In this document: positions 26,823-32,230 of the stretch, piece after piece
Layout of the letters: each line of letters begins with the position of its first letter
Position numbering within the stretch: the stretch's first letter is position 1
Source of the DNA: Actinomycetota bacterium
Lineage (GTDB): Bacteria; Actinomycetota; UBA4738; HRBIN12
Length of the DNA stretch: 64,000 nt
Reading direction: 5' to 3'
Assembly: GCA_034667405.1 (NCBI GenBank)
Contig: JAXDJX010000016.1
Location: 8,159-72,158, forward strand
The notes under the pieces: model-generated
Databases searched by the model: none
Told to the model about the DNA's origin: nothing
The model's input: only the letters and a program-made list of their open reading frames with translations
Program-made: the position numbers and the translations under genes

Positions 26823-29330
26823 ATGTTCGAACGGTTCACAGATCGCGCCAGGAGGGTTGTGGTCCTCGCCCAAGAAGAAGCGAGGATGCTCAACCACAAC
26901 TACATCGGGACCGAGCACATCCTGCTCGGCCTGATCCACGAGGGCGAGGGCGTCGCCGCCAAGGCCCTGGAATCGCTCAACATCTCGCTGGAGGCCGTGC
27001 GGCAGCAGGTCGAGGAGATCATCGGTCAGGGACAGGCAGCTCCCACCGGTCATATCCCGTTCACCCCGCGCGCGAAGAAAGTCCTGGAGCTCTCGCTTCG
27101 CGAAGCGTTGCAGCTCGGTCACAACTACATCGGAACCGAACACATCCTGCTCGGCCTCATCCGCGAAGGCGAAGGTGTCGCCGCCCAGGTTCTGCAGAAG
27201 CTCGGCGCAGATCTGAACCGTGTCCGGCAGACCGTCATCCAGCTCCTTTCCGGCTACACCGGCGGCAAGGGCGAGCAGACGCCCGGTGGTGCGCCGGGCG
27301 AGGGCGGCCCGCAAGGGTCGATGGTGTTGGACCAGTTCGGCCGGAACCTTACGCAACTCGCTCGCGAATCCAAGCTCGACCCTGTCATCGGGCGCGAGAA
27401 GGAGATCGAGCGCGTCATGCAGGTCCTTTCGCGCCGAACGAAGAACAACCCGGTTCTCATCGGCGATCCCGGTGTGGGCAAGACCGCCGTCGTCGAGGGT
27501 CTCTCGCAGGCCATCGTCAAAGGTGAGGTCCCCGAGACGCTGAAGGGGAAGCAGATCTACACGCTTGACCTTGGCGCGTTGGTTGCCGGCTCTCGCTACC
27601 GCGGAGACTTCGAGGAGCGCCTGAAGAAGGTCCTCAAGGAGATCAAGACCCGCGGCGACATCGTGTTGTTCATCGACGAACTCCACACGTTGGTGGGAGC
27701 AGGAGCCGCCGAAGGTGCGATCGACGCGGCCAGCATCCTCAAGCCGATGCTGGCACGAGGGGAACTCCAGACCATCGGCGCCACCACGCGTGACGAGTAC
27801 CGCAAGCATCTGGAGAAGGACGCAGCCCTGGAGCGCCGGTTCCAGCCCATCGAGGTCAAGGAACCGTCGGTCACCCACACCATCGAGATCCTCAAGGGGC
27901 TCCGCGACCGGTACGAGGCGCACCACCGCGTGAACTTCACCGACGATGCGCTGGTCGCCGCCGCGAACCTCGCGGACCGCTACATCTCCGACCGGCAGCT
28001 CCCCGACAAGGCCATCGACCTCATCGACGAGGCCGGAAGCCGCATGCGGATCCGCCGCATGACCGCGCCGCCCGACGTTCGCGAGATCGACGAGAAGATC
28101 GCCGAGGTTCGTCTGCGCAAGGAAAGCGCCATCGACGGTCAGGACTTCGAGAAGGCGGCCAGCCTGCGTGATGAGGAGCGTCAGCTCCAAGAAGAGCGGA
28201 CCCGTCGGGAACAAGCGTGGAAGTCCGGCGAGATGGACATCCTCAGTGAGGTCGACGAAGAGGAGATCGCCGAGGTCCTCTCCATCTGGACCGGCATCCC
28301 CGTCTTCAAGCTGACGGAAGAAGAGACCGAGAAGCTGCTCCGCATGGAGGATGAACTCCACAAGCGGATCGTCACTCAGGACGAGGCGATCAGCGCGGTC
28401 AGCCGCGCGATGCGTCGCACCCGCAGCGGCCTGAAAGACCCACGGCGTCCCGCCGGCTCGTTCATCTTCCTCGGACCGTCCGGCGTCGGGAAGACCGAGT
28501 TGTCCAAGACGCTCGCTGAGTTCCTCTTCGGTGACGAGGATTCGCTGATCCAGCTCGACATGTCCGAATACATGGAGAAGCACACCGTCTCGCGGCTCAT
28601 CGGCTCGCCTCCCGGCTACGTGGGATACGAGGAGGGTGGCCAGCTCACCGAGGCCGTCCGCCGCAAGCCCTTCAGCGTCATCCTCTTCGACGAGATCGAG
28701 AAGGCGCACCCGGACGTGTTCAACACGCTGCTCCAGATCCTGGAGGATGGGCGTCTGACGGACTCCCAGGGCCGCGCCGTCGACTTCAAGAACACCATCA
28801 TCATCATGACTTCCAACCTCGGAACCAGGGACATCCAGAAGGGACCCGGCATCGGGTTCGCGACCAGCGGGAACGAACAGGTCACCTACGAGCGCATGCG
28901 CGACGGCGTGAAGGACGAACTGAAGAAGAGCTTCCGTCCGGAATTCCTGAACCGCATCGACGAGGTCATCGTGTTCCGTTCGCTGAGCGAAGAAGACGTG
29001 AAGAACATCGTCGATCTGCTGATGAAGCGCGTGACGGAGCAGTTGAAGGCCAAGGACCTGGACATCGAGCTCACGGACGCCGCGAAGGCGCTTCTGGCGA
29101 AAGAGGGCTACGACGTGGCCATGGGTGCCCGGCCGCTCCGCCGAACCATCCAGCGATTGGTCGAGGACCCTCTGGCAGAGAAGCTGCTGTGGAAAGAGTT
29201 CCGGGCAGGCGAGACGGTCATGGTGGACGCCGTCGACGGCGAGATCACGTTCGAGCACGCCGGCGGTATCCCCGACGCGGCGCTGCCGCCGGACACTCCG
29301 CCCGTAGAACTCGCCGGCTCGCCCGAATAA
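26823..29330 (+). CDS. clpC: ATP-dependent Clp protease ATP-binding subunit ClpC
   Basis: [13 protein letters not shown], duplicated N-domain, [11 protein letters not shown]-like middle domain, [15 protein letters not shown]. Confidence 0.98.
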
Positions 29331-29344
29331 GGCGAACGTCGACC

Positions 29345-30100
29345 TCAGCTGAAGTCGCGGAGTTCCTCGGGTACCAGGGCAGCGAACTCCCAGCCCGTCC
29401 ACAGGTCGTCTGCGAAACGAACCGGGTCGGGTGCGTCCGCTCCCTGCTTGGCCGCCCATTCGCACAGTCGAAGCACGTCGCGACGCAGGAACTCGTGCGC
29501 GCTGGAGTTGAAGCGCGCGTCGACCGCTTGGGGGAAGTCGATGATCCACGGCTGCTCCTCCCACCACAACACGTTGTACGCCGAGAGGTCGGCGTGAATG
29601 ATGTCCCGCAGGAGGAATCGCTCGATCGCCCGCAACAAGAGCGCGAGGACTTCACCGGCTTCCTCCGGTTCCCACCGCAATTCGCGGAGCTGCGGGGCGG
29701 GGGCGTCATCTTCGCCCAGGTACTGGAGCAGCATGCCTCGGTCGGCGCTCGCGATGGGGCGGGGGACGGGGCAACCGGCATCGTGGAGCGCCGTCAGCGT
29801 CGAGAACTCGTGAGCTACCCAGAAGGTCTGTGAGAACTCACGTCCGGGTTTGTTCTTCTTCTGCATCGCCCGGACTTCGCTGGTGACCTTTCGGAACCGG
29901 CCATCCAGGTATGCGGCGCTATCCGCGAAGTCGCGGACACTCGTGCTTCTGTAGGTCTTGGCCACCACGGTGTCCTCGCCGGTAAGACGAGGGTTCGCGC
30001 GGCAGAGCCAGATCATCGCTTCCTTGCCGCTAGCGAGCGGCCGGATCACTTCGTGGATCAGCCCTTCATCGAAGAACGGCTCTAGTGCGGGGTCGAGCAA
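29345..30100 (-). CDS. RIO1-family atypical Ser/Thr kinase
   Basis: SGKEA, AKTYR, W...EF..L, IIHADLSAYNVL, IIDFPQAV; TTG start with AAGGAG RBS. Confidence 0.92.
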   Translation of the reverse strand: MLDPALEPFFDEGLIHEVIRPLASGKEAMIWLCRANPRLTGEDTVVAKTYRSTSVRDFADSAAYLDGRFRKVTSEVRAMQKKNKPGREFSQTFWVAHEFSTLTALHDAGCPVPRPIASADRGMLLQYLGEDDAPAPQLRELRWEPEEAGEVLALLLRAIERFLLRDIIHADLSAYNVLWWEEQPWIIDFPQAVDARFNSSAHEFLRRDVLRLCEWAAKQGADAPDPVRFADDLWTGWEFAALVPEELRDFS

Positions 30101-30172
30101 CGGATGTCTCCTTCGAGATCGCAGGCATGAATGAACGATGCTGCGTCCCTCGGGAGCCGGTGAGCGCCTGGA

Positions 30173-30226
30173 TCAGGCGGAGGCGGAGGGACGCAGGGTG
30201 AAGACCGGGGCAAAGGTCACGGCCAT
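30173..30226 (-). CDS. Putative leader peptide (17 aa, MAVTFAPVFTLRPSASA) upstream of the RIO1 kinase
   Basis: AGGAGG 8 nt before ATG; overlaps one arm of an 11-bp inverted repeat; lies downstream of a good sigma70-type promoter. Confidence 0.6.
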   Translation of the reverse strand: MAVTFAPVFTLRPSASA

Positions 30227-30277
30227 CTCACATCCCTCCTTCGTGTCGGGCCGGCGCGAGCGCACCAGCACGCGCCA

Positions 30278-30306
30278 AGCATACGCCCGGGGAGCGGTGC
30301 ATCCAA
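30278..30306 (-). promoter_or_regulatory. Sigma70-type promoter TTGGAT-N17-TATGCT for the leader/RIO1 transcript
   Basis: Seen directly on the minus strand with 17-bp spacing. Confidence 0.6.
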
Positions 30307-30327
30307 GTCTGCTACAGGTTCTGTGAT

Positions 30328-30696
30328 CTACCCGGCGTCGGGGCCCGGCACCGGGGAGGGTCCGGCGTAGAGCATCGTGATGCTCTCGACGATGGAACGC
30401 GGGATGTGCGTAACGGCGCGGAATCCGTCCTCGTCGGGGAGCAGCTCCTGGGCGATCGAGAGGAACCGAGGACCTTCCTTCACGAGGTACCCGACGGTTC
30501 GGACGACATAGTCCTCGCGGCAGTCCTCGGGATCCGTCTCTTGAAAGTCGAAGAACGCGTCGTGCCAGAGGCAGAGGACCAAGGGGTACTCGGGCACCTC
30601 GTCCAGGGCCGGCCCGCCGTCCTTCGGTTCCCCGACGGGGAACTGAGGTTGTGCCTGGGACGAACGCGGGACTGCTCGCAACGGGACCTCCTTCAA
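30328..30696 (-). CDS. Hypothetical small protein (WxDA...TVGYL...IP family)
   Basis: LWHDAFFD...RTVGYLV...LSIAQE...THIP pattern; start uncertain. Confidence 0.7.
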   Translation of the reverse strand: MKEVPLRAVPRSSQAQPQFPVGEPKDGGPALDEVPEYPLVLCLWHDAFFDFQETDPEDCREDYVVRTVGYLVKEGPRFLSIAQELLPDEDGFRAVTHIPRSIVESITMLYAGPSPVPGPDAG

Positions 30697-30865
30697 CGTG
30701 CTAGATATCGGCAGTTTTCGTCCCGGGATAACCGCCCCTCGCCACTTCTCGAACCCGCTCGCCCCGAACTAGCCTGAGGGCCTAACCCGGGGCCGTCGAC
30801 GATACCGGCGGGGGCTGACATGAGGGGGCACAACCGTGTCAGTGCCTGACTCTAGGGTCGGTCCG

Positions 30866-32230
30866 ATGGCGAAGAAGCGAGCGTTCCATTGCACGGCGTG
30901 CGGGGTCCGAGCGGAGCAGTGGACGGGTCGCTGCAGCGGGTGTGGCGGGTGGGGAAGCATCGAGGAAGTCCCATCATCGTTCGTGAGCAAGGGGTCCGGG
31001 GTTGCCGCAGTCGCGCCGGTGCCGTTGCTGTCCATCTCAGCGGGTGCCGCCGCGGCCAGGGTCTCTACGGGGATGGAGGGTATCGATCGGGTCTTGGGCG
31101 GAGGAGTCGTCCCGGCTTCGGTCGCCTTGCTCGCCGGCGAACCTGGCATCGGGAAGTCCACGCTGCTCCTCCAGATGGTCGCCCACTTGTCGGCCACAGG
31201 ATCTCGGTGTCTGGTGGTCTCGGGCGAGGAGTCCCACGCCCAGGTGGCGGCCCGGGCCAGGCGTCTGGGTGTCGCCGCGGAGTCCGTCACGTTCGCCCCC
31301 GGTAGAGATCTGGGCGCGGTCCTGCAGAGCGCATCGGAAGCACGGCCATTCCTCCTGGCTGTGGACTCCATCCAGACCATCCGGGACATGGACGCCACGC
31401 AGATCCCCGGAGGCGTCTCGCAGGTACGAACCTGCACGGATGCTTTGGTCGGGCTCGCAAAGACCCAGGGGATCGCCGTGCTGCTGACCGGCCATGTCAC
31501 GAAGGACGGGGACTTGGCCGGTCCCCGGGCACTCGAGCACGCCGTCGATGTCGTCCTCACGTTCGACGGTGACGCCCGGTCGGGGCTGCGGGTGCTCGCG
31601 GGAGGCAAGAACCGATTCGGTGCCGAAGGGGAGACGGCCTGGTTCGAGATGGAGCCTTCCGGATTGCGGGAGATCGACCCGACCGACCTCCTTCTGTCCG
31701 GCGAACGGGTTGCGGGGGCAGCGACTGCGCTGCCGCTAGCGGGCAGGCGGGCGCTCGCGGTAGAGGTGCAGGCCCTGGTGGGGACGACCGAAGGCCCGGC
31801 GCGCCGGCAGGCGACGGGGCTCGACCTGCGGAGATTCCAGCTCGTCGCGGCCGTGCTCGATCATGCCATCGGATTTGGCATTGGTCGCTCCGAACTGTTC
31901 GGGGCCTCGGGCGGCGGGGTGCGCATCGATGATCCAGCCTGCGATCTGGCGGTCGCGGCGGCTCTTGCTTCGGCTGCGGCCGGGGTTCCGCCTCCCGCCG
32001 ACGCCGCATTCGTGGGCGAGGTGGCCCTCACCGGGCTCATCCGGCCTGCTCCGGGGATGGCCCAGCGGCTCGCCGCCGCCAGAGCCGCCGGCTGTGCCAC
32101 CGTGTTCGCCCCCCGCGGGGAGGCTCTGGCGCTGGAGGGTGTGACCATCGTGCCGGTCAGCCGGGTCGCTGAAGCCCTCACTTGGGCACGTCGACCTGCA
32201 GGAACGCGGTCAGAACGGCGTTCGGCGTAG
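30866..32230 (+). CDS. radA: DNA repair protein RadA/Sms
   Basis: C4 zinc finger, GEPGIGKSTL, VDSIQT, GHVTK, KNRFG, Lon-like C-terminus. Confidence 0.96.
   Translation: MAKKRAFHCTACGVRAEQWTGRCSGCGGWGSIEEVPSSFVSKGSGVAAVAPVPLLSISAGAAAARVSTGMEGIDRVLGGGVVPASVALLAGEPGIGKSTLLLQMVAHLSATGSRCLVVSGEESHAQVAARARRLGVAAESVTFAPGRDLGAVLQSASEARPFLLAVDSIQTIRDMDATQIPGGVSQVRTCTDALVGLAKTQGIAVLLTGHVTKDGDLAGPRALEHAVDVVLTFDGDARSGLRVLAGGKNRFGAEGETAWFEMEPSGLREIDPTDLLLSGERVAGAATALPLAGRRALAVEVQALVGTTEGPARRQATGLDLRRFQLVAAVLDHAIGFGIGRSELFGASGGGVRIDDPACDLAVAAALASAAAGVPPPADAAFVGEVALTGLIRPAPGMAQRLAAARAAGCATVFAPRGEALALEGVTIVPVSRVAEALTWARRPAGTRSERRSA

Follow-up and report, generated by a model that had tools for sequence, protein, structure and literature searches.

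Translation attenuators of the ermC type use a uORF (upstream open reading frame) to control access to a downstream Shine-Dalgarno sequence (SD). The leader of Bacillus subtilis vmlR has a uORF of three codons whose SD is single-stranded before SL-1; stalling on this uORF blocks the anti-antiterminator so that an antiterminator forms and an ABCF protein is expressed, and the leader also contains an SD-sequestering hairpin (PMC9226507). In Listeria, the rli80 leader of hflXr contains a 14-codon uORF that lies over the anti-antiterminator and carries an RLR macrolide motif; it has three competing segments, is induced by stalling, and its target gene acts on ribosomes (PMC6310831). The whiB7/wblC attenuator of Actinomycetota has a uORF of variable, Ala-rich sequence, with efficient translation leading to a terminator and stalling leading to an antiterminator (10.1101/2023.06.02.543512), and the lmrC leader (PMC8546547) can be grouped with it. 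In the Escherichia coli toiL-topAI system, the uORF governs access to the downstream SD by pairing with it directly, so that stalling anywhere induces, and several drug classes act (PMC12121999). Leaders of this kind precede genes that protect or rescue ribosomes, among them vmlR, hflXr, lmrC and whiB7.

We compared these systems with a leader that precedes a RIO kinase gene in a window (the whole stretch of DNA analyzed) of 64,000 nucleotides from an Actinomycetota bacterium. The predicted logic of this leader is like that of vmlR, rli80, whiB7/wblC and lmrC in that stalling on the uORF would favor expression, and like that of toiL in that the uORF would govern access to a downstream SD. It differs from vmlR in its uORF, which has 15-25 codons among related leaders, contains the antiterminator strand and contributes its own SD as 5' arm to the first helix, and in its target, a kinase. 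Where rli80 has its macrolide motif, the conserved codons of the RIO leader are a pairing strand, and in two thirds of the family to which the window genome belongs (hereafter, the family) a stem that hides the SD replaces the terminator. Sequence and target are unrelated to those of whiB7/wblC. Unlike toiL, the RIO leader is predicted to relay the signal via three helices, so that only early stalling would induce. The leader in the window has a short uORF with its own SD and mutually exclusive helices that overlap the uORF, both as in known attenuators, but no intrinsic terminator. The RIO leader is set apart by a first arm made of the uORF's own SD, the missing peptide stall motif, a swappable output and a kinase as target. 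The features of the locus are as follows.

30301..30306, minus strand: candidate -35 hexamer TTGGAT, weak and unconserved
30278..30283, minus strand: -10 hexamer TATGCT, the promoter being likely of the housekeeping-sigma kind, TANNNT kept in the family
30231..30240, minus strand: segment A, which serves the uORF as a very strong SD and the A:B helix as its 5' arm
30173..30226, minus strand: uORF of 17 codons, MAVTFAPVFTLRPSASA, with a counterpart in 90/92 family leaders
30185..30196, minus strand: segment B, codons L11-S14 (LRPS), the switching strand that pairs with A or C
30165..30179, minus strand: 6-bp hairpin spanning the uORF stop codon, within the B:C loop
30153..30159, minus strand: "clamp" strand, which the predicted OFF hairpin pairs with the kinase SD
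30141..30151, minus strand: segment C, which as the 11-bp repeat's 3' arm forms B:C (predicted ON) and as a 5' arm opens the C:D hairpin (predicted OFF)
30114..30128, minus strand: segment D, which pairs with C in the predicted OFF hairpin
30108..30113, minus strand: kinase SD, AAGGAG
29345..30100, minus strand: RIO1-family atypical kinase, 251 aa, TTG start at 30100

A preliminary description of this DNA had named the uORF, its strong SD, a perfect 11-bp inverted repeat (arms 30196-30186 and 30151-30141, minus strand), the hairpin over the stop codon, the kinase SD and the TTG start, and each of these was found where it had been placed. A hairpin of -5 kcal/mol or lower is present in the stop-codon region in 83/89 family leaders, a count made without a shuffle control. 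The promoter had been proposed as TTGGAT-N17-TATGCT. Both hexamers and the 17-nt spacer are present, and the -10 pattern TANNNT occurs in 84/89 family leaders, in 75 of these at 47-69 nt upstream of the ATG (also without a shuffle control). By contrast, the -35 is CTGGAC or CTAGAC in congeners and is thus unconserved, and a consensus promoter and terminator scan gave 0 promoter sites for the leader promoter; it found no terminator in the window. The overall folding stability of the whole 201-nt leader is unremarkable (z -1.31), and an Rfam scan of 28000-32000 returned no family at cut-off and none on the leader. No WhiB7 site was seen by eye ahead of the window promoter. The upstream regions of six loci (L039, L043, L048, L027, L050 and L052) have an A-tract directly 5' of the -35, absent in the window, that in the first three resembles the WblC site GAAAWY (PMC7157823). 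An ORF of 122 aa without a Pfam or NCBIfam match (window 30328-30696, minus strand) ends 22 nt before the -35. Inspection by eye showed a comparable end of a coding region ahead of the kinase in several relatives (L002-L004, L007, L014, L017, L018 and L029).

The 251-aa product matches Pfam RIO1 (PF01163) with 116.3 bits against a cut-off of 22 (E 1.6e-33), which confirms the earlier assignment to a bacterial RIO1 kinase. The catalytic residues K48, H169, D171, N176 and D188 are invariant across 22 aligned relatives. The Pfam RIO1 domain and these residues are shared with the archaeal and eukaryotic Rio1 kinases, and in the PDB the window kinase is matched best by human RIO1, RIO3 and archaeal Rio1 (E about 1e-17). 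Pfam RIO1 is also shared with the Pseudomonas PA4780 family, but the window kinase falls below both NCBIfam equivalog cut-offs, that of PA4780 (NF041645; 170.8 vs 350 bits) and that of the haloarchaeal Rio1. Rio has been described as universal in eukaryotes and archaea (PMC1821047) with a role in ribosome maturation, at the small subunit, in eukaryotes (PMC6125641); the passage of PMC11197903 that covers PA4780 lists it as a predicted kinase only. In the open-access literature searched, with most supplements outside the search, we found no function for bacterial RIO kinases, including a role at the ribosome, and no published leader for a RIO gene. The word RIO is absent from the text and 10 supplement files of the Streptomyces coelicolor WblC regulon paper, where a "hypothetical" label could mask the gene, and from the main text of the Breaker 50-genome paper. 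In Deinococcus radiodurans, DR2209 (Rio1) was 21-fold down in an oxyR mutant, listed together with ABC ATPases and with an RNA helicase (PMC2225504), a result not interpretable for the present question. The term "RIO1-like" occurs five times in a study of Pseudoalteromonas phages (PMC5498523).

The kinase is present in 22/61 relatives, 162/223 genomes of the family and 42/301 genomes of the phylum. These tallies include the window genome (G000) and three genomes flagged as unpublished (G041, G347 and G448); our other claims rest on none of the flagged genomes. Leaders were taken from part of the family, namely the best-scoring loci, 40 regions covering the genera and six loci assigned by similarity, and of 198 loci in the set, 178 were kept once duplicates, two fragments and the two loci from G041 had been dropped. 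In 90/92 family leaders there is a strong SD followed by a uORF of 15-25 codons. The exceptions were L060, with no uORF in the interval used by the script, and L114, which is cut short; L128 is a duplicate of L096, so later family counts use n=89. In other lineages, a short ORF with a strong SD lies no more than 750 nt upstream of the kinase in 61/81 loci, compared with 10/112 background windows of equal size taken from these loci; a further five loci were short and left out. In the window genome just 18/977 long ORFs, spurious ones included, have a comparable ORF upstream, and the SD of the RIO kinase leader is the strongest among these 18. A 17-base two-part leader pattern matched 50/113 family genomes and its reversed control matched 0. 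Related leaders are non-independent observations. We consider a real and conserved translated-leader switch ahead of the RIO kinase to be very probable. Five matches of the 17-base pattern were at non-kinase sites. One record titled Planctomycetaceae (L127) has a family-type kinase and leader (uORF MAKVLALVFTPRPSASA), by mis-binning or transfer, and L022/L023 (G007:C106) are two pieces of one kinase gene whose 5' part and leader are missing.

The same data bear on whether the uORF is incidental, the leader being a small-molecule riboswitch or protein-binding site in which purine-rich A is just an RNA arm. Segment A is indeed both SD-like and a pairing strand, and translation of the uORF is predicted from sequence. 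Yet the start codon at SD distance and the open frame of 15-25 codons are kept in 90/92 leaders while the intervening sequence drifts, the leader alignments contain no conserved aptamer-type loops, and the leader has no Rfam match. We regard this as the least probable of the readings considered here.

We propose that the 170 bases ahead of the kinase function as a ribosome-position switch formed by a mini-gene and three competing pairings. With no ribosome on the leader, B would pair with A, and C could then form the downstream hairpin that keeps the kinase off. The outcome would be the same with a ribosome in transit over codons 8-17 or stalled there, as B would be covered and C would again close the hairpin. 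A ribosome stalled on codons 1-4, and probably to about codon 7, would instead cover A and expose B, which would capture C and block the hairpin, turning the kinase on. The downstream hairpin of C would hide the kinase SD in the window, whereas in roughly one third of the family it would act as an intrinsic terminator. The signal may be a general arrest of initiation or early elongation, caused for instance by drugs that stall ribosomes on or close to the start codon or by a lack of charged tRNA, and the kinase may help the cell cope with blocked or damaged ribosomes. Lincomycin and retapamulin cause early arrest on the vmlR uORF (PMC9226507) and tetracycline acts at the toiL start codon (PMC12121999). 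We give a probability of roughly 0.6 to early uORF stalling turning on the kinase as a general translation-stress response. Induction of the kinase by translation stress or antibiotics, suggested in the preliminary description, would fit this predicted logic and the known analogues.

Codon usage in segment B suggests what is conserved there. The motif P-[RH]-P-S recurs across the family at codons 10-16. In this stretch Pro is encoded by CCC in 82/90 cases, compared with 30% in the kinase genes, Arg by CGT in 49/56 (8% in kinase genes) and His by CAT in 25/26 (15%), whereas Ser is always TCN (79/79) and never AGY (0/79, compared with 29% AGY in kinase genes); one duplicate is among these counts, as are a few rows with a wrong anchor (L003 and L066, for instance). 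The position ahead of Pro is taken by any of seven residues (R, H, T, I, M, C, D), and in L019 the B strand is in a different frame. The codon bias, the Arg/His/Met/Ile swaps and the L019 frame change argue for selection on the bases of B. Judged from these patterns, B is conserved as RNA, and its pairing role yields the LRPS peptide as a by-product. With conservation at the level of bases, the uORF contains no conserved nascent-peptide stall motif.

The recurring motif is what would be expected if a drug or the peptide itself stalled the ribosome on LRPS by an Erm-type nascent-peptide arrest, breaking the 11-bp repeat and releasing the kinase. Of the readings considered, this one is closest to that of the preliminary description. 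The base-level selection on B speaks against such an arrest, which we consider very unlikely. The 11-bp repeat is the predicted ON helix, which a ribosome on LRPS would disrupt, leaving the kinase off.

The A:B, B:C and C:D helices share strands, are mutually exclusive and overlap the uORF. For B:C, 95.7% of cells are paired in 58 SD-type leaders (those with an SD-hiding stem, see below), with 7 double-sided changes; 0/500 shuffles were as high and slid controls gave 24-47%, a comparison in which kinship can beat shuffles. For A:B, 96.4% of cells are paired with no double changes in the family, as A is constrained by its role as an SD. No covariation was found within the family for A:B or for the terminator-type helices, the columns of which are nearly invariant. 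Across lineages A and B have been rewritten jointly, with other sequences and reading frames, and outside the family A:B beats shuffles in 28/61 leaders and B:C in 21/61. The alignment of leaders for uORF and stem covariation that had been put forward as a check thus returned a uORF in 90/92 and the B:C changes. Conservation gives good support to the uORF-hairpin attenuator that had been proposed from the window; of its three helices one had been noticed, and A:B and the downstream hairpin had been missed.

The family contains two types of output. In the terminator type (31/90 leaders), C forms the 3' arm of a hairpin that is rich in GC and has a T-rich tail after it. The SD type (59/90 leaders, including the window) is without such a terminator, and in isolated folds of 58 leaders (L005 excluded) the kinase SD is paired in 54 by a hairpin that begins with C. 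On a quick tree of 57 kinases, in which long branches are flagged and the direction of output change is left undirected, the terminator label needs 3 changes and the starred branches, which are well supported, force 2. This would make the RIO leader family a natural experiment in RNA evolution, with one sensor, two output modules and, on the quick tree, at least two switches. We put forward only tentatively, and jointly with the ribosome-repair feedback loop described below, that the output was swapped between a terminator and an SD-hiding stem more than once inside one family.

We used RNA folding to examine the direction of the switch, which in these models is clearest in the terminator type. 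Placing a ribosome on codon 1 lowered the terminator probability below 0.5 in 12/30 leaders, compared with 0/30 when the leader was free or B was covered; in the other 18/30 the terminator was still favored at equilibrium. B:C beats 95% of shuffles in 22/30. Covering B freed C to close the terminator in 30/30, which also argues against release of the kinase by a ribosome on LRPS.

Predicted support for this direction in the SD type is mixed. In a local test of 58 leaders, the median cost of opening the kinase SD was 9.2 kcal/mol in the OFF fragment (4.9 when shuffled) and 4.2 in the ON fragment. The drop was at least 2 kcal/mol in 47/58 and better than 90% of 20 shuffles in 41/58. C:D alone beats shuffles in 15/58 and clamp:SD in 20/58. 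In whole-leader equilibrium folding (n=59), the free leader was harder to open than the start-occupied leader by at least 1 kcal/mol in 37/59. Covering B gave no direction in this test, making the 25-nt kinase ribosome-binding site harder to open in 28 and easier in 28, with a median of -0.1 kcal/mol; the 28/59 that became easier are in line with an Erm-type arrest on LRPS.

In the window, the predicted fold was A:B plus C:D with no ribosome, B:C with the ribosome footprint placed with codons 1-4 in the P site, and C:D again from codon 7 onward or with B covered. A return to A:B at codons 5-7 is probably an artefact of the model because this helix could form only by enclosing the ribosome. In energy the two conformations are no more than about 3 kcal/mol apart, and the accessibility of the kinase SD barely changes with ribosome position. 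The gain in the local test was just 1.5 kcal/mol, with 30% of shuffles as good; in the congeners L003 and L004 it was 4.4 and 5.4 kcal/mol. The modeled support for the direction is thus weak in the window, and it is uncertain how strongly the leader controls the kinase in this genome. One soil metatranscriptome (word share 0.12) had no cover of the leader and was uninformative.

The start of the uORF bears on the nature of the signal. In 89 family uORFs, residues 2-7 are 29% Ala and 75% Ala, Val, Thr or Ser (211 gene starts in the window genome gave 9% and 33%), and 85/89 contain Ala among these residues. The same switch could therefore be tuned to amino-acid supply, with a shortage of Ala (or Thr, Val or Ser) stalling the ribosome on codons 2-7 and turning the kinase on, much as the alanine-rich whiB7 uORF senses alanine starvation (10.1101/2023.06.02.543512). 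This is unlikely in our view. The bias fades beyond the family, where Ala makes up 12% in a set of 20 from other Actinomycetota and 10% in a set of 40 from Chloroflexota and further groups, and no single residue is conserved in codons 2-7. The bias would be consistent too with drugs that stall after Ala, such as linezolid (10.1101/2021.08.10.455846), or base pairing of the start region.

The strength of the uORF SD, the highest of the 18 such leaders in the genome, together with the OFF fold of the ribosome-free state, would also suit a leader that gauges ribosome abundance. Frequent loading on this SD would keep A covered and B:C formed, so that the kinase would track growth rate and drop when ribosomes are scarce; a ribosome-maturation kinase, as Rio is in eukaryotes (PMC6125641), would be most needed in fast growth. 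Each loaded ribosome, however, also crosses B, melting B:C, after which the leader folds OFF, and in the known systems of the same layout (vmlR, whiB7 and hflXr) efficient translation means OFF as described in the sources cited above. We judge a gauge of abundance to be a little less likely still than tuning to amino-acid supply.

General translation stress, sensed as early stalling, is thus our preferred reading. An extension of it, which we offer as possible but doubtful, is a widespread feedback loop in which ribosomes trapped at or just after initiation, whether drug-bound, damaged or immature, would flip a leader with a self-masked SD and induce a kinase that repairs, recycles or matures ribosomes, with the sensor kept from Actinomycetota to Chloroflexota. 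A conserved leader at RIO kinases would be a testable clue that places the kinase in the translation-stress response and points to conditions.

Downstream neighbors of the kinase included no recurring ribosome-related factor among the 85 of 115 downstream ORFs that were scanned. Efflux-type transporters lie downstream of the kinase in 12 loci, mostly titled Chloroflexota. An MFS transporter is next in 7 of them, one under the Pfam cut-off (L151, L154, L156, L157, L177, L186 and L196), and an ABC transporter in 5 (L153, L164, L187, L194 and L195). In the family the next gene after the kinase is an ECF sigma factor in 7 loci. In the window the kinase and clpC are convergent, with stop codons 14 nt apart (29330-29345) and no terminator-like site found between them by the scan.

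We also looked for further leaders of this type in the window genome. When SD:uORF duplexes were ranked across the whole genome, GC-rich noise dominated the result. With a tighter SD:uORF pattern the RIO locus stood alone among 151 strong SDs, and no regulon sharing the leader was found in this genome. Neither its HflX gene nor one ABC-F gene has a leader of the RIO type. On contig C18 of the same genome (G000), plus strand, a uORF starting near 215685 has 14 codons (MSVPLFRPSKGPSL) and a GGAGG SD, and its end overlaps the ATG of a gene for an ABC-F-like ATPase. The SD of this uORF is able to pair with the first codons, making it a candidate for a second translated leader with a different layout.
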